From the NCBI GenBank assembly GCA_965243135.1, contig OZ251539.1, forward strand, positions 2,368,001 through 2,432,000: a DNA stretch of 64,000 nt, written 5' to 3'. Shown piece after piece: positions 22,769 to 38,077 of the stretch. Under the pieces are notes generated by a model. That model had not been told where the DNA came from and did no database searches. It saw nothing but the letters and a program-made list of their open reading frames with translations. Source of the DNA: Alphaproteobacteria bacterium (GTDB taxonomy: Bacteria; Pseudomonadota; Alphaproteobacteria; MPNO01; UBA830). Position numbers and translations under genes: made by a program. Numbering within the stretch: position 1 is the first letter of the stretch; every line of letters begins with the position of its first letter.

Positions 22769-23589
22769 TGCGCCGCCATCCACGCGACAGCGCGCGGCGC
22801 CCAAGGCCCGTCGGCCTCGCCTCCGGCGAGGCTGGCGCCGAAATGATCCCTCGCGTCCAGAACCACGACCTCGGCATCGCCGCCGACGCTCCGCAACGTC
22901 GCCGCCATCGCTTCGGCCTGCGTCTTCAAATGGGGAAAATCCTCTCCGCCGTAGGCGATCAGAAACGAACACGGCCGTTCCTTCACGTGGAGAACGGGGC
23001 TCGCGTCCCGATCGTTTTCCTCCGCGCCGAGAAACCGCGGGCGCATCGACAGGCCCGATCCCTCCCCGAACATGTAGACGCCGGAAATGGGCAGGCAGCC
23101 GCGGATCGCGTCCGGGGGAAGATCCCGCGTTCGCCGCCATTCTTCGGTGACCGCCAGCAGGGACGCGTAGTGACCGCCCGCGGAATGGCCGCCGACGAAC
23201 AGACGGGACGGATCTCCCCCGTATCGATGGATTTCCCGGAAAACCAGGGCGATCGCGTCGGCCACGTCGTCCCGTCCGGCGGGAAAAACGTGGAGCGGCG
23301 CGAGACGATATCCGACGGAGCAGAACGTGACGCCTTGGGACAGGAGCGCCGGCGCCATGAAGTTCATGTGCTCCTTGTAGCCCGAGGTCCATCCGCCGCC
23401 GTGCACGAAAACCAGCACGTCTCCGTTGGGCTCGGCGGGCGCATGAACCGCAACCGCCTGATAGGGATCGCCGCCGTAGGACAGTTCGGCGTCGGGAGCG
23501 ACGCCGGCTCCGCGCCGCGTCACTTCTTCCACGTAAGAGCGGGCGATTTCCGAAAAAGGCTCCTGCGGCGGATATTCCTCGGGCCGCAT
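22765..23589 (-). CDS. Alpha/beta hydrolase, HSL/kynurenine formamidase-like
   Basis: Oxyanion motif HGGGW, nucleophile elbow GHSAGG, C-terminal DHF. Confidence 0.85.
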   Translation of the reverse strand: MRPEEYPPQEPFSEIARSYVEEVTRRGAGVAPDAELSYGGDPYQAVAVHAPAEPNGDVLVFVHGGGWTSGYKEHMNFMAPALLSQGVTFCSVGYRLAPLHVFPAGRDDVADAIALVFREIHRYGGDPSRLFVGGHSAGGHYASLLAVTEEWRRTRDLPPDAIRGCLPISGVYMFGEGSGLSMRPRFLGAEENDRDASPVLHVKERPCSFLIAYGGEDFPHLKTQAEAMAATLRSVGGDAEVVVLDARDHFGASLAGGEADGPWAPRAVAWMAAH

Positions 23590-23592
23590 CGT

Positions 23593-24666
23593 TCAGCGGT
23601 CCACCCGTCGAACGATCATGCTTTCGTCCACGACCCTGCCCCGGTCGATGACCGTGTCGTTGTCCAGAACGACCGTGCAGCCGCGCATCGGCACGTCGTA
23701 ATGGCCTTTGGTCGTGCGAGTCCCGCCCCCTTCGCTGTTGGGGCCGGTCGAGAACAGGAAATTCCCGGCGAACGCGCGCGCCGAAGCGTAGGTGCGATCG
23801 GGGTCGTCGCCGTAGAGCGCCAGCGCGTCCCAGCGCGACTGCGGATTCAGGCCCCAACCGAGATGCGAAAGATGATGGCCGTCGAGGTCGTCCGGGTCCG
23901 CCTTGTTGTCTTCGAGCCAGTGCTCCATCAGCCTGGCGTCCATGCCGCCGGAAATCTTTCTGATGCAGCCGTCTTCGATCTCGAGGCGAATTTCGTCCTG
24001 CACGTAGCGGTTGTACGGCAGGACGACCATGTCGCCCGGCTGGACGACTACCGTGCCGCGGGCGGATTTTTCGTTGGGAAACGTGTGCACGTGGCCGGCG
24101 CCCCAGTGATCGAAGCGCCCGGGAGCGTCCGCGTACCCGTACTGAATCATGGTCGGATATTCGCCGCATTCGTAAGCCAGATCGGTCCCGGCGTCGCTCG
24201 TGACCCGGACGGAACTGGTCGCTTCGAGCCGCTTGCCGGCGCGGATCACGGCTTCGCGCAGTCCGGGAGGCGCCATGAGCTGCTCCAGATCGTCGGGGGC
24301 GTCGATGATCATCAGCACTCGCGTGCCGGCTCCGCGAACGGTCTTCATCCACCTGGTGAACAACGGAATATGGAGGCAGACGAGCATGTCCGCCGCGCAC
24401 AGGGCCTCGAGCGTCCCTTTGCAGGCGCCGATCGTCTCCACCCCGACCTTCGTCCACGACGGGATCGAATTCACGCAAAGTTCGTAAGCGTCGGCGCCCA
24501 GTTCCGACGCCGCTGCGAAAGACGCCTGCACGTATTCGCGTCTGGAGTTCAGATCGGAGAGCAGCGCGACGGTCTCGCCCTCCCTGACTTCGCACAACGC
24601 GAACTCCTCGCGGAACAACGCCGCGAGCCTGGCCGGATTCAATTCCTGCGTGCGCATGACGAGCAT
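23593..24666 (-). CDS. nicX: 2,5-dihydroxypyridine 5,6-dioxygenase-like protein (NicX/M29 fold)
   Basis: Collinear similarity to NicX as recalled: YGYADAPGRFDHW, TFPNE, SHLGWGL, ARAFAGNFLFSTGPN, GHYDVPMR (His/His/Asp Fe ligands present). The exact substrate is not certain. Confidence 0.75.
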   Translation of the reverse strand: MLVMRTQELNPARLAALFREEFALCEVREGETVALLSDLNSRREYVQASFAAASELGADAYELCVNSIPSWTKVGVETIGACKGTLEALCAADMLVCLHIPLFTRWMKTVRGAGTRVLMIIDAPDDLEQLMAPPGLREAVIRAGKRLEATSSVRVTSDAGTDLAYECGEYPTMIQYGYADAPGRFDHWGAGHVHTFPNEKSARGTVVVQPGDMVVLPYNRYVQDEIRLEIEDGCIRKISGGMDARLMEHWLEDNKADPDDLDGHHLSHLGWGLNPQSRWDALALYGDDPDRTYASARAFAGNFLFSTGPNSEGGGTRTTKGHYDVPMRGCTVVLDNDTVIDRGRVVDESMIVRRVDR

Positions 24667-25118
24667 CCTTCGTGATTGACGGTCACGCTCGCGAAGCCCC
24701 TGCCCCGAACGAATTCCGCGCACTCGAACGAGTTCGACCGGCGGCGAAGCAGGCCGACGCATGACGCCGGGCGAATCTCGGCAACGAAAAAACGCGAACC
24801 AAGGACGCCATCGAACGAACCCGAAGCATAGCGGCGTCGGCCTCGGAAGCAAAGCGCCCTCTTGCCCCGCCCGCCCGTCGAAGCCGCCCGGCGACTCGGC
24901 GAGCGCGCCGGTCCATGAAGCCCTCTTCCCGGACGAGACCGTGATCGCTGCAAGCCCTCGACGGCCTCCGCGCATTCCGCGCTTTCGACGGCGCGTCCAC
25001 GAGACTTCAGGCTATCATGAAAGGAGCCCTGTCCGCGGAACCAGGGCGAGCCACCGACGCGATTGCGGGGCCGGCGTCGGAAAATCCCCGAAAGCCGCAA
25101 AGCCGAAAGCTGCCGCCA

Positions 25119-25847
25119 TCAAACAAGAGGCACGAAATCGTCGCCCGACATCGGCTTGTGCTCGTTCCACCGGCCCTGCATCTCGATCAGAACGCGCTGC
25201 CGCGAAGGCGCAGGTTGCGGATTGATTTTCACGACGCGAGCTCCGTAACTCGGAGATTCCGTCAGCGCTGCGGCCAGTTCCCCCTCAAGATAACGCGGCG
25301 CCCAACCGATCATCTGGTAGTCTTCAGTCTGAATCTGCACTGCGATTCCGGTCGCCGGATTCGTCAATTCCAGCGCCAAGTGCAACGTTTCGTTCGCATT
25401 CAAGAAACTGATCCGTGCCCTTGCGGCGGGATTCACGCGTCGGTGGCCGAGCAGGAAAAAGCGACAGAAAAATTTTCCGTCTTCTTGCTTGACGATTTTT
25501 GGAAATACCTCGTAGTGATCGGTCACGCGGTATCCGCCGTTTACCGACAAAATTTCGAATGGATCCGCGTTATCGCCAAGGTCAAGATGGCGCAAGTAAT
25601 CGCCCCGGTCCGGTCTTCCCCGCGCGATAATGCGATTCTTGAACAATGAAAAAAGTTCGGACGACCGATAATCCTCCTCGAAATCCGGAAAATCGTATAG
25701 CGGCGGAAAGCCAACCTCCTCTTCGGCTCGCTTTGCGCCGTGGATATAACGAAACCGATAAAACGAAGGTTCGAGATCCAGCCTGCCGATCGGAAACCAT
25801 CGGCGGGACCTCTGCTTGTCCTGCCATGCCAGGAACAGAGTGTTCAT
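25119..25847 (-). CDS. HipS(HipA N-terminal)-like + HIRAN domain protein
   Basis: LFLAWQD..WFPIGRL..YRFRY..GFPPL.DFP..SSELFSLFKNR..RPDR..DPFEIL..GG.RVTD, followed by a HIRAN-like half (L.LELTNP..AVQI..IGWAPRYL). Confidence 0.82.
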   Translation of the reverse strand: MNTLFLAWQDKQRSRRWFPIGRLDLEPSFYRFRYIHGAKRAEEEVGFPPLYDFPDFEEDYRSSELFSLFKNRIIARGRPDRGDYLRHLDLGDNADPFEILSVNGGYRVTDHYEVFPKIVKQEDGKFFCRFFLLGHRRVNPAARARISFLNANETLHLALELTNPATGIAVQIQTEDYQMIGWAPRYLEGELAAALTESPSYGARVVKINPQPAPSRQRVLIEMQGRWNEHKPMSGDDFVPLV

Positions 25848-26077
25848 ACCGCGAGGCTCCGCAGTTGCTCAAGATTGTAGTTCAACAAGGCGCGGGCGAA
25901 CGATCGTTGGGACGAAGTCATCCAGCCTTCCGGCACGCGCTCGACGAGGTCGCTCAATCGTCGCGCATCCAGTTTTTCCAGTTTTCTCAACCCCGGAATC
26001 ACGAGGTCAGTATAACGTCGATGCGCCCGCCGCGCAAGTTCCAACGGCCTAGGCGCCCGCCTTTCGTTTTCGCACAC
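25844..26077 (-). pseudogene. C-terminal remnant of a HipA-like kinase
   Basis: PLELARR...LSDLVERVPEGWMTSSQRSFARALLNYNLEQL, typical of the C-terminal helices of HipA-like kinases; its TGA overlaps the HIRAN gene ATG (ATGA). Confidence 0.7.
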
Positions 26078-26133
26078 GCGTCATGCCTTTCCGCATAGCT
26101 CGACCCTTTGGAATAAGGCTATCCCGGTGCTCA

Positions 26134-26784
26134 TCAACTCTTTGTCCCGGAAAACGCACTCCGCAGACGATGGCGCACTTGAGGAACATCGTGGAACACT
26201 GCCATCCATACCGACCAAAAGCCGCTCGCCTCAGCAATCATGATCACGATGTCGACATCGGCATTTCCTTCCTCCAGCTTTTGCCGAACTTGTTCGGCTT
26301 TTCCCCAAGTCTCTTTACGTTGACGCCAACGTAAATCCTTAGCCTGTTGCAATGATCTTCTATTTCGTCGAGGGATATGATTAAGACCAACGAGTTCCAA
26401 TAGCGCTTGCGCTCGGGCGCGATCCCCAACAGATAGTTCCGCGCTCGTATTCACGATCCCATCTGACGAATACCGAAATGCCGCCTCGGTGTCGTCTTGA
26501 TCAGGCCACATGTATCCGTACCGCGACCTATTTCGATCACTCTTCCGAGAGTTGCAATTTCTGCAAGCAAGAAGAAAATTCGTCCATTCTCTTTCCAAAT
26601 TCGGACAATGAATTTTTGGTACAACATGTTCGATATCCAAATAGTACCCCTTGCGTTCGCAATAGCTGCAGTATCCCCCAATTCGGCGCAGAAGATCGTT
26701 CTTTGCGTCATGATAGGTTGAAAAAGATACCGGATTCCCTCGGTCATCCATTGGACACGGTCCTCGATCAATAGGCCGCATCAT
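26134..26784 (-). CDS. ptuB: HNH endonuclease (Septu PtuB / retron-associated type)
   Basis: MRPIDRG..GGYCSYCE..IEHVVPK..WTNFLLACRNCNSRK..WPDQD..GFWSVW; lies immediately downstream of the ATPase. Confidence 0.82.
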   Translation of the reverse strand: MMRPIDRGPCPMDDRGNPVSFSTYHDAKNDLLRRIGGYCSYCERKGYYLDIEHVVPKIHCPNLEREWTNFLLACRNCNSRKSDRNRSRYGYMWPDQDDTEAAFRYSSDGIVNTSAELSVGDRARAQALLELVGLNHIPRRNRRSLQQAKDLRWRQRKETWGKAEQVRQKLEEGNADVDIVIMIAEASGFWSVWMAVFHDVPQVRHRLRSAFSGTKS

Positions 26785-26824
26785 TAGCTCCTATTGGTTC
26801 AAACCAATTTTCCTTATGACGACT

Positions 26825-28117
26825 TCATTCAAGTCCGCCGGATTTTCTATGCATGCGCAAGAAAGCAAGATAGGCAGGGTCGTCTCCAAAGGGTTCCTCC
26901 AGATTGTCAAGTTTGTGTCGAAGATTCTTGACTTTCTCAACGTTCCGACCTTCGCCATGCTCGATAAGTTCAAAATATTCTTCCGCCGCGTGCAGCATGT
27001 TCCAAAAGCGCTTGCTCCGTTGCGGCAAATCAACCCCCATAATATTTTCGGTAACGTCCTCTATGCTTTGTCGATGTACCGGCTCCAGATAATCTGATTC
27101 CCTGTCCAGATTGGCTACAGCGCCTGACTCCATGGATTGAATAATAAAAGGCGAATGAGTTGTAGCGACAAATTGCAAACTTGGAAATGTTTCGCTGAGA
27201 TCCTGCACTACGCTTCGCTGCCATCTTGGATGAAGGTGCAGATCGATTTCATCGATCAACACAATGCCCGGTGTTTCTACATGCGCTTGTCCGCGCAAAT
27301 GTGGGTTGAGCTCGGCGCATCGTACGGCGATATCGGCGACTGTCGCTGCCATGGTCCGCTGGCCACCGCTCAGCGACCAAAGCGGAAGCCGGTGACTATC
27401 TCCAAATTCGACGACGATATCGTCTTCCTCGAAATCGAAGATGACGGAACGCGCGCCTTCGACGCATTTTGCGATCACTTGGTACACGGCGTCGAGAGTT
27501 TCCAATCTTTCGCCGTTCTGCGCTTGTATCAAAGCCAGACGCTTTACCCAAGCGGTCATGCGCTGCGCCGACGACGACGGCTCGAGACAGTTTCGATAGC
27601 CGGCATAACGAGTTTCTCTCTTTGTCGGATTCAGAAAACGCCTGTCCATAGATCTTTGCTGAATCCATAAACGGCCGGTTCCATAATATCCTATAAACGG
27701 AAATATAACATTTTCCCCACTCGTGCTCTGCCGAACCAAATCGGCCATCTTGTATCGAATATTATTTGCCTCGGAACGGGACGTCTTGCCTTTCTCTGTT
27801 CTCAATTCGCGTGACCAGAATTGCTCTTTTTCCGCAACCAATCCGTTCACTTCTATGCGGGCCGGATAATATTCAACGCATTGCCGTGTTTCACCGGATT
27901 TCCGGTAGGTGCGACGCACATCCCGACGATAGATCGATACTCCCTTCGCATCCGGTATATTGAGCAATGCAGATCCCGCCGCTACTGCCAACGCATCAAG
28001 CAGCGTTGTCTTGCCGCTTCCGTTTACGCCCACCAGCAACGTGAATCGTTTATCCAAAACAAAAGTTCGGTTTTCGAAACACCGAAAATTCTGGATTCGA
28101 AGTCGGTCTATCCGCAT
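26825..28117 (-). CDS. ptuA: AAA/ABC ATPase (Septu PtuA type)
   Basis: MRIDRLRIQNFRCF, Walker A GVNGSGKT, YYGTGRLW, LSGGQR, PGIVLIDEIDLHLHPRWQR, FPSLQFVATTHSPFII; alternative start 28150. Confidence 0.85.
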   Translation of the reverse strand: MRIDRLRIQNFRCFENRTFVLDKRFTLLVGVNGSGKTTLLDALAVAAGSALLNIPDAKGVSIYRRDVRRTYRKSGETRQCVEYYPARIEVNGLVAEKEQFWSRELRTEKGKTSRSEANNIRYKMADLVRQSTSGENVIFPFIGYYGTGRLWIQQRSMDRRFLNPTKRETRYAGYRNCLEPSSSAQRMTAWVKRLALIQAQNGERLETLDAVYQVIAKCVEGARSVIFDFEEDDIVVEFGDSHRLPLWSLSGGQRTMAATVADIAVRCAELNPHLRGQAHVETPGIVLIDEIDLHLHPRWQRSVVQDLSETFPSLQFVATTHSPFIIQSMESGAVANLDRESDYLEPVHRQSIEDVTENIMGVDLPQRSKRFWNMLHAAEEYFELIEHGEGRNVEKVKNLRHKLDNLEEPFGDDPAYLAFLRMHRKSGGLE

Positions 28118-28439
28118 TGCAGAATCATGCCAATGATTGTTAGCCGCCAAGCCAAGAGGCCGCGTCTAACGACCGTAGCAGTATAGCGGGCGAACGGTCA
28201 AGATCAGGAATCAGCAGCGAACGGAAGCATATGGCGGTCGGAATTCCCGGAAAGCAGCGGCGGGCGCATGCATGTTAAAGATCGCTGCTTGACGGAAAGA
28301 GGTGGTAATCGCTCGTGTCGGAAGCGAACTCATGGCTTCATCCCGTTTTCCAGCACCGCCGGACCGGGTGCTGCTCTACATTGTAAGACACTGTTTTTGC
28401 TTCGGAAATCGGAATTTCCACCGGCGGGCGGAGTCCGGC

Positions 28440-28568
28440 GCCTGTTCTTGCGGAAACTTGAACAACCACAGGTCGTCGCCCTTGCGACACCAAAATTTTT
28501 TCTTGGTTCCCATTTCCTCTTTATCGACGATCATGTCCGGCTTTACGTCCACGATACGGATCCGGCAC
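28440..28568 (-). pseudogene. N-terminal remnant of the HipA-like kinase
   Basis: Not in the ORF track. Manual translation gives GTG-PDPY, frameshift, IVDVKPDMIVDKEEMGTKKKFWCRKGDDLWLFKFPQE, matching the E-x-x-G-(S/T)-K-x-K-x-W...W-L-F-K start of HipA-like kinases. Confidence 0.75.
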
Positions 28569-28671
28569 GGCCGTCAGGCAGCCGGAACGCCGCCCGGTTC
28601 CGGTCGCGGGAGACAACCTGTCAGGGCGACCTCCGGACAAGCCGGCCCGGAAATTCACTCGCTCCGCCTCG

Positions 28672-29706
28672 TCATCCGCCCGCTTCCCGAAGAATTTCGG
28701 CTATCCCGGTCAAATTCAGCCGTTCGGCCAGCTCCAGCGGCGACAGGTTGCGGCTCCGCCCGCATTGCGCATAGCCGTCAACTTTCAGGCCGTGCCGGAC
28801 GAGCATCTCGACGATCTCGCGATGTCGCATCGCAACCGCCATGCAAATCGCGCGGCGCGCCCGGCCGTCGACGGACGCCCCTTCGCTCAACAGAAGTCTC
28901 GTCATTTCCGCGCGTCCGAAAAGAACGGTCGCGTTAAGCGCGGGGCCCGAGATGACTCGGCCGCCCGCGAAATCCGGACGCGAAAACTGGATGACGGTCT
29001 CCGGATCGAAACCTTCCGCGGCGATCTTCCGGAACGCCTCGACGTCCCCGCCCTCGATGGCCCGGATCAAACTGTCGCCGGGAGATCCCTGCCGCGCCGT
29101 CGTTTCGGGCAGCGCTATGCCGCGCGCGCCGACCCTCGCCAGAAGCGCCTCCATGCCGCCGACGCCCACGCTCCCCGACATAGGGCAATGCAATCCCCAA
29201 AGCCTGATGCGTCCGCGGGTGCCCGCGTCGTCCGGGGCGGCGGTCAGATCGAATTGGCGAAAGACGGCGCACTCGCGCCCGTCGGCGGCGAAGACAAGAT
29301 ACTCCGCCTTTCCCAGCGCCGTCGTTGCGCTGCCTGCGCGGCCGAAAGAGAGAGCCTTGTCCTTGAACGGACTGAGCGACCTTGCGAAGTCTTTCAGATC
29401 GGTCTGCAGGTAATCCGGAAAATGGCGGCCCGGCGCCGCCTCGTCCAGTTGAACGAGCAGAACCGGAAGGGATTGGACACGGGATATCCAGACGCCGGAA
29501 TGCGTTTCGACCTTGTAGTCGGTCGCCTTGTAGGGGAGATAACGATAAAGCGCCAGGGTTCGTGCGACCTCGGGTCCGGAGAAGACGATTTTGCTTTCGG
29601 ATCGCGTCGTCGTCTCCCAGTCGGCCGCGGTCGCCGGCATGCATGCCAGAAAAAAGCAGAACGCCCACCCCGTGCCGCGAAACCGGCCCTTGCTTCTTGA
29701 TCGCAT
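28672..29706 (-). CDS. Secreted protein with C-terminal ankyrin repeats
   Basis: Signal peptide (WAFCFFLACMPATA); about four ankyrin-like units (LIRAIEGGDVEAF, ALNATVLFGRAEMTRLLLSEGASVD, AICMAVAMRHREIVEMLVRHG, SPLELAERLNLTGIAEIL). Confidence 0.72.
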   Translation of the reverse strand: MRSRSKGRFRGTGWAFCFFLACMPATAADWETTTRSESKIVFSGPEVARTLALYRYLPYKATDYKVETHSGVWISRVQSLPVLLVQLDEAAPGRHFPDYLQTDLKDFARSLSPFKDKALSFGRAGSATTALGKAEYLVFAADGRECAVFRQFDLTAAPDDAGTRGRIRLWGLHCPMSGSVGVGGMEALLARVGARGIALPETTARQGSPGDSLIRAIEGGDVEAFRKIAAEGFDPETVIQFSRPDFAGGRVISGPALNATVLFGRAEMTRLLLSEGASVDGRARRAICMAVAMRHREIVEMLVRHGLKVDGYAQCGRSRNLSPLELAERLNLTGIAEILREAGG

Positions 29707-29848
29707 TGCGCGCTCCCATGTTCGCTTCTCGACCAACGGCCTTCGCGCGGCGCCGACGGCGCTTCTTCAGGCCGAATCCTTTCCGGCCGCGGCGTTCGCG
29801 ACTCTTCTCGCCCTGCCCGGCGCGGCCGGAACGCGGGAGCCGTTCAGG

Positions 29849-31057
29849 CTATTTCTCCGGAAGCCCGAACAACCTCGCGGCGTTACGGCCGAGAATGTTG
29901 CGCTTCGCCTCCTCGTCGAGAAACGGCAGATCGGCGATCACCGTCGGCAGATCGAAATCCCAGTGCGGCCAGTCCGAAGCGTAGAGAAGCTGCGTCGGCG
30001 CCCGGATCGCCTCGAACGAAGCTTCGAGCAGCTTCATGTTCGTGCGCTCCAGAGGCTGGCAGGAGAAATACATCTCCGAGATGTACTCGCTGGGAAGCCG
30101 CTTCAGGTTGGGCGCCTCGGAAGAGCGCATCAGATACTCGCTGTCCAGCCGCTGCTGCATGAACGGCACCCAGGCGACGCCCGACTCGATCCAGACCACC
30201 GGCAGATTGGGAAAGCGCTCCGGCAATCCGTTGATCACCCAGTTCGTCATGTGGACGACGTTGCACAGCACGAACGAGATCGCGTGCATGGAAATGAACC
30301 GGTTGAGCTGGCCGACGTATCCTTCGTGCTGCCAGTGAGGCCCGGCATGGAAGCCGAGAACCTTGCCGCGCTCCTCGATCATCCGGTAAAGCCGCATGTA
30401 CTGGTTATGGTGAACCGGCCTGAAGCGCACGGACGTGATCATGAAGCCCGCAACCTTCGGATGGTCGGCGTAGCGCTCGACGATCCGCTCGCAGGCGCCC
30501 GGCTCCGAGAACGGCAGATAGAGCATGGAATGGATGCCGTCTTCGGTGGCCAGCACGTTCTCGGTCAGCCACCTGTTGTAGCCTTCCGCCAGCCCCACTT
30601 CGACTTCGACCTCCGGATGCAGCCCGAGCGACAGCATCGGCGTCGGAAACGTGATCTGGCGGTCGACCGACATGCTTTCCATGGCGCGGCGGATCAGCAC
30701 GACGTCGCGGTGCGCGCCGTCTTCGGCCGCGGCCTCTTCCTCCAGCCCGTGATCGTGGCTCACCCGGCCGCCGATGCTCTGGTTCGGCGGCCAGCCCGAG
30801 GTGTTCATGATCCCCGGATGGACGCGCCCGTTGCGCAGGAAACTCTCGGCGGTCGTGCGCACGACGTCGCTCGGAATCAGCTCGATGACCTGATCCCAGG
30901 ACTGCGTCTCGAAATGATGCGCATCGACGTCCACGATCAACCAGTCTTCGATGCCGCGTTCCCGTATGGCCCGCTTCGCGCGCGCCAGCGTTTCTCTCGT
31001 GTCGGTGCTCTTCCCGAGCTGTCCGAGCTCGCGGATCGGCTCCATTCCGCTGTCCAT
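29849..31057 (-). CDS. Amidohydrolase_2 family protein (possible decarboxylase/hydratase)
   Basis: VDVDAHH, GFHAG, ERFPNLPVVWIESG, LPSEY, LLYASDWPHWD, ILGRNAARLF. Confidence 0.9.
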   Translation of the reverse strand: MDSGMEPIRELGQLGKSTDTRETLARAKRAIRERGIEDWLIVDVDAHHFETQSWDQVIELIPSDVVRTTAESFLRNGRVHPGIMNTSGWPPNQSIGGRVSHDHGLEEEAAAEDGAHRDVVLIRRAMESMSVDRQITFPTPMLSLGLHPEVEVEVGLAEGYNRWLTENVLATEDGIHSMLYLPFSEPGACERIVERYADHPKVAGFMITSVRFRPVHHNQYMRLYRMIEERGKVLGFHAGPHWQHEGYVGQLNRFISMHAISFVLCNVVHMTNWVINGLPERFPNLPVVWIESGVAWVPFMQQRLDSEYLMRSSEAPNLKRLPSEYISEMYFSCQPLERTNMKLLEASFEAIRAPTQLLYASDWPHWDFDLPTVIADLPFLDEEAKRNILGRNAARLFGLPEK

Positions 31058-36429: not shown

Positions 36430-38077
36430 CAGCAATTCCCGCTAAGGCTCGAAACCCTTGAAAAATATGGGGCCGGAAAAAAGTCTTTCGTGGACTTTTC
36501 GAGGTGATTCGGGGCTATTTGCCTTCGAGCGGAGCATTTTTCTCTGGAAAGTGGTCCGAAGGCGAGGCGGGATTGTACCAAAATGGCCAGAATGCCAGGC
36601 ATGCGCAAGACGCTCAGCGCTCCGGGATTGCTGAAGGAAGTGCGAGCTTGTTTCGACCGTATTGAAGATCCGATCGCGAGCCGGGGGCTGAACCAGACGG
36701 ACTGTCTGATGTCGGGTCTAGCGGTGTTCGGTATGAAGTATGCGTCGCTTCTGCAATTCGACGAAGCCGCGCACGCCGACGAAGCGGTTCGGCACAACCT
36801 CGCGACCTTATACGGCGTCAAGCGCGTGCCGTCGGACACTGCGATGCGCGAACGGCTTGACGAAGTCTGTCCGCGGCAATTGCGGCGTTGTTTCACGAAG
36901 ATGTTCCAGGTTTTGCAACGAGGCAAGGGGTTGGAACAATACACTTGTCTGAACGGGCATTACGCTCTTTCGATCGATGGAACGGGATACTTCTCGTCGA
37001 ACAAGGTGCACTGTAAAAATTGCTGCGAGAAACACCACCGCGACGGTACGATTACCTACTACCACCAGATGTTGGGGGCCGTTCTGGTGCATCCGGAACA
37101 AAAGGAGGTTTTTCCGTTTGCACCGGAACCGATCCTGAAGGAAGACGGCGCAAAAAAGAACGATTGCGAACGCAACGCAGCGAAACGGCTTCTGGAAGAT
37201 GTGCGTCGTGAACACCCGCACCTGAAGCTAGTTGTGTTGGAAGATGGGCTGGCCTCGAACGGACCACATGTCAATCTTCTCAAGGAGTTAGACATGCGTT
37301 TCATACTGGGGGCGAAGCCCGGCGACCACAAATTCCTGTTCGAGTGGGTCAACAACGCGCCGTCCGTGGAGCGCCGGGAGTTCACGGACGGTGACAACAT
37401 ACGGCACGAATTCCGGTATCTCAACGGAGTGCCTCTGAACGATACGCACTTCGACCTCAAAGTGAACTTTCTCGAATACTGGGAGAAGCTCCCAAACGGT
37501 AAGAAACAACGTTTCTCCTGGGTCACGGATCTGCCAATTGACGAAGGGAACCTGATGGAGTTGATGCGCACCGGGCGGGCGCGCTGGAAGATCGAGAACG
37601 AAACTTTCAACACCCTGAAGAACCAAGGCTACTGCTTTGAGCACAACTTCGGTCACGGTAACAAGAATCTGTCGACGGTCTTTGCGTTCCTGATGATGCT
37701 GGCGTTCCTGATTGACCAGATTCAACAGCGATGTTGCAAACTGTTCCAACAGGCACAAACGAAGGCCAAGCGGCCCATTTACTTCTGGGAAAAGGCGCGG
37801 GGATTGTTTCTCGAATACTTCTTGAAGGACTGGGAAACACTCTACCGAATGATCGCGTTTGGATACCGGAAAGCAGAGGGAATTCCCTACGACACCTCCT
37901 GACCTGGCACCGTGACCGAATGTGCTAAAGCAAGTTTTTCAGGGGAAACAGGATGGTCAAGGCTAAGTCGGCACCAAGCCGAAGCGGGGAAGGTGCGTCG
38001 CGGCGGCTGATCCCTCGGTAACGACGCTATCTCGACGCGCCTTTCGCAAAGGGCGGCCACCTTAGCGGGAATTTCTG
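36430..38077 (+). mobile_element. Insertion sequence, 1648 bp, DDE transposase (ISNCY/IS4-related; family not certain)
   Basis: TIRs CAGCAATTCCCGCTAAGG (36430-36447) and, reverse-complemented, CAGAAATTCCCGCTAAGG (38060-38077), 17/18 identical; 9-bp direct repeat GCGACGAGG at 36421-36429 and 38078-38086. Confidence 0.95.
36583..37902 (+). CDS. DDE transposase
   Basis: Intact 439 aa: SIDGTG, HCKNC, KNDCERNAAKRL, LEDGL, GRARWKIENETFNTLKNQGY.FEHNFGHG; AT-richer than the flanks. Confidence 0.93.
   Translation: MARMPGMRKTLSAPGLLKEVRACFDRIEDPIASRGLNQTDCLMSGLAVFGMKYASLLQFDEAAHADEAVRHNLATLYGVKRVPSDTAMRERLDEVCPRQLRRCFTKMFQVLQRGKGLEQYTCLNGHYALSIDGTGYFSSNKVHCKNCCEKHHRDGTITYYHQMLGAVLVHPEQKEVFPFAPEPILKEDGAKKNDCERNAAKRLLEDVRREHPHLKLVVLEDGLASNGPHVNLLKELDMRFILGAKPGDHKFLFEWVNNAPSVERREFTDGDNIRHEFRYLNGVPLNDTHFDLKVNFLEYWEKLPNGKKQRFSWVTDLPIDEGNLMELMRTGRARWKIENETFNTLKNQGYCFEHNFGHGNKNLSTVFAFLMMLAFLIDQIQQRCCKLFQQAQTKAKRPIYFWEKARGLFLEYFLKDWETLYRMIAFGYRKAEGIPYDTS

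Follow-up and report, generated by a model that had tools for sequence, protein, structure and literature searches.

A Septu gene pair lies between the two ends of a hipI kinase gene, upstream of an intact hipN gene, in an alphaproteobacterial genome

The window analysed here is a 64,000-nt stretch of the genome of an Alphaproteobacteria bacterium (assembly GCA_965243135.1, contig OZ251539.1, positions 2,368,001–2,432,000 of the forward strand). It contains an islet of low guanine-plus-cytosine (GC) content in which the two genes of a Septu defence system, ptuA and ptuB, are nested between the two ends of a hipI kinase gene, followed by an intact hipN gene. The hipIN module consists of a short HipA-family kinase, HipI, and a HipS-like/HIRAN protein, HipN (Gerdes et al. 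2021, PMC8262856), and equals the PADLOC candidate system PDC-M03. The open reading frame (ORF) list and the PADLOC profiles give a single minus-strand order from 28570 to 25119: hipI N-terminal remnant, spacer, ptuA, ptuB, linker, hipI C-terminal remnant and hipN. The features are as follows, in window coordinates.

25100–28600, minus strand: low-GC islet of ~3.5 kb that contains all of the parts below (GC profile)
28418–28570, minus strand: hipI kinase N-terminal remnant, including the Gly-rich-loop region EEMGTKKKFW (PDC-M03A profile, tblastn)
28118–28417, minus strand: non-coding spacer of 300 nt between the N-terminal remnant and ptuA (no kinase or PtuA homology)
26825–28117, minus strand: ptuA, Septu type I ABC-type ATPase, 430 aa (PADLOC PtuA1)
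26134–26784, minus strand: ptuB, Septu HNH nuclease, 216 aa (PADLOC PtuB1, Pfam HNH)
26078–26133, minus strand: linker of 56 nt from the ptuB stop to the kinase C-terminal remnant, with the right-hand insert junction
25844–26077, minus strand: hipI kinase C-terminal remnant, a 77-aa open frame from GTG 26077 (PDC-M03A profile)
25119–25847, minus strand: hipN, putative antitoxin with a putative HipS-like N domain and a predicted HIRAN C domain, 242 aa, intact

The two ends of hipI match opposite ends of one profile, PDC-M03A (PDLC04345). A 58-aa ORF (28552–28376) corresponds to profile positions 6–43 of 302 (E = 3.4e-8), and the homology of the N-terminal remnant as a whole covers positions 4–43 of 302. 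The 77-aa ORF (26077–25844) corresponds to positions 230–301 of 302 (E = 1.3e-12). Intact kinases of 299–332 aa from nine other loci, used as tblastn queries, align to the window solely at their residues 2/9–50 and ~229–302, and residues ~51–228 left no trace within the window. It is this missing part that bears the catalytic-loop (GNTDRHHxNWG), Mg-binding and FDHASSLGRE motifs in the alignment. A whole-genome search with PDLC04345 returned the two end pieces, a long HipA-like frame that lies 165 kb away and is unrelated, and nothing else. Neither the window nor the rest of the genome retains the ~170 codons that bear all of the catalytic motifs, and the short HipA-family kinase with core motifs that marks hipIN/PDC-M03 is absent from this locus. 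The original prediction, made from the sequence alone, had placed a PtuA–PtuB pair inside a HipA-like kinase gene upstream of an intact HipS–HIRAN gene, and the profile, tblastn and alignment evidence supports it. Both remnants match the same protein N- and C-terminally, as it had expected, whether PDC-M03A or the intact kinases are taken as the reference. Its ORFs and translations hold, with the N-terminal remnant now refined to 28570–28418, and its report that the catalytic core is missing agrees with the survival of profile positions 4–43 and 230–301 alone.

The homologous stretch of the N-terminal remnant is free of stops and frameshifts. An in-frame TGA (window 28571–28579) lies two codons ahead of its first aligned residue, and the first start codon is GTG 28552; the original start codon of the kinase may be lost, or the boundary of the islet may fall at 28571–28579. 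The C-terminal remnant aligns with residues 229–302 of the kinase at locus L007 and is 41–49% identical to the L007 and L008 kinases. The two remnants are 44% and 49% identical to the L008 kinase, compared with 48% and 45% for the intact L007–L008 pair over the same columns. By this measure the remnants, which contain no stops or frameshifts, show no visible decay beyond the divergence of intact kinases. Coupling of the kinase C-terminus to the HIRAN gene, also noted in the original prediction, can be read directly, the TGA of the remnant overlapping the ATG of hipN as ATGA. The coordinates of seven intact loci (L009, L010, L012, L013, L014, L016 and L065) show a 4-nt kinase/hipN overlap likewise.

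The ptuA frame (28150–26825) matches the PtuA1 profile PDLC00278 over positions 1–430 of 436 (E = 3.7e-134). It is open from TTG 28150, and ATG 28117 is the likely start because every aligned homologue begins at MRID. Residues of the Walker A, signature, Walker B/D-loop and H-loop elements are invariant in the alignment, the invariant columns being N32, G35, K36, S250, G252, D289, E290, D292, H294 and T320–P323. Directly 3′ of ptuA, on the same strand and after a 40-nt gap, the ptuB ORF (26784–26134) matches PtuB1 (PDLC00315) over positions 1–208 of 227 (E = 8.2e-72) and Pfam HNH with 36.5 bits against a cut-off of 21.4 (E = 5e-9). Its CxxC...EH...N...CxxCN residues (C39, C42, E52, H53, N69, C74, C77 and N78) are likewise invariant. 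The protein stops just past the conserved AFxGT, without the 20–25-aa tail present in five of six aligned homologues, which places the right-hand junction at the very end of ptuB. A search for the tail in other frames past the stop found nothing significant.

Among solved structures, the best relative of the window PtuA is the stand-alone Septu PtuA 8ee4 (E = 1e-50, residues 12–377), while retron PtuA structures match it in the C-terminal half only (residues ~199–373). The retron PtuA model NF041760 gives 205.8 bits against a cut-off of 500, and TIGR02646 gives 47.7 against 52.15. Retron-type PtuA is described as about 550 aa long, with an N-terminal extension and a helical flap, and stand-alone PtuA as lacking both of these as well as the loops by which retron Ec78 PtuA binds multicopy single-stranded DNA (msDNA; PMC12819146). 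On these comparisons PtuA and PtuB are predicted to be full-length, stand-alone type I Septu proteins, not retron-type ones. The locus resembles the type I Septu of 8ee4/8ee7 in its two adjacent co-oriented genes, its full-length PtuA1 and PtuB1 matches and its retained ABC-ATPase and HNH motifs; it differs in the absent PtuB tail and in the position of the pair within a broken toxin gene. Retron Eco7/Ec78 (type I-A), in which a reverse transcriptase and non-coding RNA/msDNA control PtuAB, has an effector pair homologous to that of the window and is the known case of PtuAB placed under another sensor (PMC12819146). The islet differs from it in the 430-aa length of PtuA and in having neither an Rfam RNA nor a reverse transcriptase gene, its family matches being solely ptuA, ptuB, hipN and the two remnants.

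The 300-nt spacer (28118–28417) is homologous to neither the kinase nor PtuA and matches no Rfam family at E ≤ 1, and no consensus sigma-70 promoter was found in it. It carries a 1-nt insertion polymorphism at 28220 in metagenome runs X4, X7 and X8, consistent with non-coding DNA, and is presumably the upstream region brought in by the Septu cassette. The window PtuA is 29–45% identical to its aligned relatives. Scanning metagenomes gave 13 PtuA loci with no more than 43% identity; 19 other genomes among the 400 searched in the phylum reached 45% at best, plasmids 39.5% and 80 loci on viral contigs 48%, and none of those found is near enough to name a donor. The same genome holds a second, different Septu pair ~97 kb ahead of the window start (locus L053, G000:C1:2270000–2272700), with a PtuA1 match (PDLC00311, E = 3e-112) in a 655-aa frame and a PtuB1 match (PDLC00349, E = 7e-53). 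The PtuA of this pair shares 34% identity with that of the window, and the 4.2-kb locus showed no HIRAN gene.

HipN has been proposed as the antitoxin of HipI and as a possible DNA-end sensor, and its neutralising activity is given as a proposal in the source (PMC8262856). Our literature search found no experimental study of the hipIN family, and PMC8262856 was the only paper in which the terms HipN, HipI and HIRAN occurred together. The window ORF (25847–25119) matches PDC-M03B (PDLC04347) over positions 1–241 of 245 (E = 1.9e-70). It matches Pfam HIRAN only weakly, with E = 0.0017 and 18.6 bits, under the cut-off of 24.7. An AlphaFold model built on 11 homologues, with a mean predicted local distance difference test (pLDDT) value of 69, matches the HLTF HIRAN structures 4s0n, 4xzg, 5bnh and 6kcs and the bacterial structure 3k2y with a Foldseek probability of 1.0 and template-modelling (TM) scores on the target of 0.59–0.79. 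The model thus predicts that HipN carries a true HIRAN fold. Confidence is mixed in the N-terminal half, for which the best HipA-like fold match is 3dnt with a probability of 0.18; the N domain has no Pfam match, and the HipN profile found no match at E ≤ 1 among Protein Data Bank (PDB) sequences. Assignment of a putative HipS-like N domain follows from family membership and PMC8262856, and the fold search gave no confirmation of it. HipBST offers the nearest comparison, since the N domain of HipN is said to resemble HipS, which neutralises a short HipA-type kinase (PMC8262856), but the window locus has no HipB and no live kinase.

Of 76 positions invariant among 10 homologues, the window HipN departs from 3; the corresponding deviations in loci with a live kinase are 4/77, 16/89 and 9/82. 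Judged by these positions, HipN is conserved as well here as beside a live kinase. GGAG stands 9 nt ahead of the hipN ATG, and the stretch from ptuB to hipN has no predicted terminator. The locus shares the full-length HipN and the ATGA overlap with other hipIN modules, and it differs from them in that HipI is reduced to two end pieces, so that as a toxin–antitoxin or defence module it is dead. Elsewhere in the genome there is a lone 144-aa ORF (G000:C1:4481788–4482105; L005 1492–1926) whose match to the PDC-M03B profiles is confined to their HIRAN half (E = 4.5e-16); its neighbouring ORF has no PADLOC match.

Base composition separates the parts of the islet. GC content is 46–60% across the islet and 64–70% in its flanks. 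By part it is 49.2% in ptuB, 50.1% in ptuA, 54.7% in hipN, 59.6% in the C-terminal remnant and 56.2% in the N-terminal remnant, and the genes flanking the islet have 64–65%. There are three layers: the host at 65%, the hipIN parts at 55–60% and ptuAB at 49–50%. The insert had been described from the sequence as richer in A and T than its surroundings, and the 49–50% GC of ptuAB against 64–65% agrees with this. No convincing direct or inverted repeats, whether as a target-site duplication or as terminal inverted repeats, were found at the insert junctions, and a promoter and terminator scan gave nothing above the expectation from shuffled sequence. Between 24000 and 30000 there is no Rfam family at E ≤ 1 save two chance small nucleolar RNA matches outside the islet. 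The neighbours are ordinary metabolic genes (ABC transporter, esterase, ankyrin-repeat protein, amidohydrolase, Usp, HpaB), and no integrase was seen among the genes around the islet. About 8 kb away, a 439-aa ORF on the plus strand (window 36583–37902) has a third-position GC of 0.69, below that of its neighbours, and a weak match to IS4-family transposases (E = 1.7e-4, far under the cut-off); a degenerate insertion sequence is one possibility.

The same arrangement occurs in independent metagenome runs from three other studies. A 10,062-nt contig of run X8 covers 23500–30000 in identical order with 3.9–5.9% differences, and contigs of run X4 bridge both the hipN–remnant–ptuB side and the ptuA–spacer–N-terminal remnant–flank side. 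The structure is not an assembly artefact, because independent contigs bridge every junction and one spans the whole stretch; it is present in other related populations. In X8 the linker stretch 26075–26135 (about 59 nt) is replaced by 68 other letters, with both sides aligning, and all 18 gap letters of the left piece lie outside hipN and the C-terminal remnant. Among the differences listed between the window and X4, ptuA and ptuB differ by ~0.3% (5 in ~1,595 nt; 26443–28340), and hipN, the C-terminal remnant and both flanks by 1.1–2.4% (23628–26360 and 28704–30000). Recombination may have spread the Septu segment more recently, or ptuAB may be under stronger constraint. Among the listed differences common to X4 and X8, 13 of the 20 touched hipN codons change the residue. 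Eleven of these common differences crowd into the 44 nt of 25239–25282 (hipN residues ~189–203) and alter seven residues. This part of the HIRAN half resembles a variable patch or a recombination tract.

We compared the locus with 32 other HipN loci (12 on genome contigs, 2 on plasmids and 18 found among 400 genomes of the phylum) and with 115 PtuA loci. A kinase core adjoins hipN in 23 of the 32, is lost or degraded in 7, and could not be judged in 2. PtuB was found by tblastn and hidden Markov model (HMM) search near none of the 32 HipN loci, and HipN or the kinase near none of the 115 PtuA loci, 97 of which have PtuB. As a control, the HipN HMM was run on 20 independent HipN loci and recovered 19. 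The two families co-occur in just one of the 400 genomes, on separate contigs, and HipN was not found in viral contigs or in 60 relatives. A weak PtuA match ~1.8 kb upstream of the kinase at L010 (45 aa, P-loop only, E = 6e-5) was taken as an unrelated ATPase. In a DNA search of four other genomes of the genus, the flanks alone match, at 70–84% identity and out of synteny; the islet is absent and no clean empty site was found. Our literature search yielded no paper that treats PtuA together with HIRAN.

Loss of the kinase beside a surviving HipN is recurrent, and what replaces it differs each time. At L015 (3827–4444) an in-frame deletion removes kinase profile positions 124–214 and leaves a 205-aa ORF. 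On an Oscillatoria plasmid (L066, 2008–2989) an ORF for an IS630-like transposase is followed by a 35-aa C-terminal remnant of the kinase. In genome G197 (L084/L165) a 1528-aa helicase-nuclease ends exactly where a 68-aa C-terminal remnant (profile positions 229–296) starts, with hipN after the remnant. This protein combines AAA_11/AAA_12 with the restriction endonuclease MTES_1575 family, is PDC-S37/MkoC-like in PADLOC and ends at base 584; no N-terminal remnant was found in the 6.8-kb L165 contig (1–6841). The kinase is intact in a second copy in the same genome (L068, G197:C243), which shares 93% identity with L165 (G197:C101) over 579 nt. Four further loci (L011, L073, L081 and L083) are hipN orphans with no kinase. 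The right-hand breakpoints in the kinase profile of three independent events are 215, 226 and 229. Such similar breakpoints need no special explanation, because only loci that keep hipN are visible and a tolerated lesion must remove the catalytic core.

We consider it probable that the locus is a degenerate hipIN module with a Septu system nested in its dead kinase gene, HipN being a leftover and Septu acting alone. About 170 hipI codons, the entire catalytic core, would have been replaced by a 2.35-kb cassette that carried a complete stand-alone type I Septu: upstream region, ptuA and ptuB. The suggestion in the original prediction that one conflict system replaced the toxin of another fits this history. 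A toxin gene would be a safe landing place, because its loss is harmless and loss of the antitoxin is not. The Septu at this locus probably works. As for stand-alone PtuAB, the ABC-ATPase oligomer would hold the HNH nuclease, which on infection would be released or activated to cut nucleic acid. Stand-alone PtuAB is described as nicking DNA and as inhibited by ATP (PMC12819146), and Septu is reported to cleave the variable loop of tRNA-Tyr (PMC13096335). HipN would have no part in this. It is probably still transcribed by read-through from ptuAB, because nothing between ptuB and hipN is predicted to terminate transcription, and would be translated from its own ribosome-binding site. The state of the remnants suggests that the event is recent compared with the divergence of the family, and for that reason an intact hipN says little about selection. 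Altogether the locus looks like ordinary defence-gene turnover, not a new combined system.

Several observations weigh against this view. An uninterrupted kinase–HIRAN allele at the chromosomal site, which the original prediction had proposed to look for in related genomes, was not found in the 60 relatives searched for HipN or the four genomes of the genus searched by DNA. Septu entry into hipI may therefore precede or follow arrival of the module in this lineage. No insertion signature, duplication or inverted repeats, accounts for the entry of the cassette. Many of the surveyed loci have flanks of only 1.5 kb, and the PtuA relatives that provide context are at most 45–48% identical, so that a recurrent PtuAB–HipN arrangement among close relatives would have gone unseen. 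A similar C-terminal piece of the kinase survived three independent events, and a functional reason for this is possible. Finally, an intact hipN and an indel-free C-terminal remnant persist across strains ~5% apart, which selection for a role of HipN would predict likewise.

HipN might also have been retained for a job of its own after the same structural history, either as an orphan antitoxin that protects against addiction by HipI from incoming plasmids or phages, or as a free DNA-end-binding protein. Such a role would fit the four kinase-less hipN orphans, the occurrence of hipIN on plasmids, the retention of 73 of 76 homologue-invariant positions in HipN, and the presence in this genome of the lone 144-aa HIRAN protein, which belongs to the HipN profile family. 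However, no intact HipI kinase was found in the genome as a target, the neutralising role of HipN is put forward as a proposal in its source (PMC8262856), and a young event accounts for the intactness of HipN equally well. We regard retention for a separate function as unlikely.

It is very unlikely that HipN, alone or with the coupled 77-aa C-terminal remnant, has been co-opted as a DNA-end sensor or brake of PtuAB, in the manner of the retron Eco7/Ec78 sensor. The original prediction had raised the possibility that this PtuA–PtuB–HIRAN set forms a novel composite in which HIRAN stands in for a retron. In its favour, the genes share one orientation without a predicted terminator in the ptuB–hipN interval, HipN is intact with a modelled HIRAN fold, hipN and the C-terminal remnant are free of indels in a strain ~5% apart, and PtuAB has been co-opted once already, by retrons (PMC12819146). 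Against it, the association does not recur in the surveys, in which PtuB is near none of the 32 other HipN loci and HipN near none of the 115 PtuA loci, and kinase loss occurs with unrelated replacements. Moreover, the window PtuA is of the stand-alone type, described as being without the N-terminal extension, helical flap and msDNA loops that serve nucleic-acid control (PMC12819146). The N-terminal remnant shows that an intact kinase was interrupted, not that a module was assembled; the absence of extra decay in the remnants means that HipN intactness may reflect only a young event, and residue changes in 13 of 20 touched hipN codons, among the differences listed, do not resemble strong constraint. 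Complex prediction of PtuA and PtuB with HipN returned a score of 0.00, which is no answer and counts neither for nor against binding. An insertion scar, the alternative that the original prediction had itself allowed, is a better reading of the locus than the composite.

The second locus in G197 (L165), with a defence-like nuclease-helicase directly upstream of the kinase C-terminal remnant and HipN, counts in favour of the co-option idea, of which a broader form is conceivable. HipN and the kinase C-terminal piece, which bears the translation start of hipN, would then be a portable DNA-end-sensing module that survives loss of the kinase and regulates any nuclease effector landing upstream. 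The regulated effectors would be PtuAB in the window and the 1528-aa helicase-nuclease in G197. We judge this highly improbable. Were either form true, retrons would not be the only route by which Septu acquired a nucleic-acid sensor; this would be a second, independent acquisition. That the nesting arose from joining reads of two loci during assembly is refuted by X8 record 25, which spans the whole stretch, and by X4 records 3, 6 and 7, which cross both sides of the insert.

As a degenerate hipIN module interrupted by Septu, the locus is a clean example, dated by composition, of defence-islet turnover, in which one system lands in the toxin gene of another and leaves an orphan antitoxin behind. 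Annotation pipelines would label it 'Septu plus a HIRAN protein' and overlook the dead kinase. It is also a natural starting point for asking whether HipS–HIRAN proteins act without their kinase.

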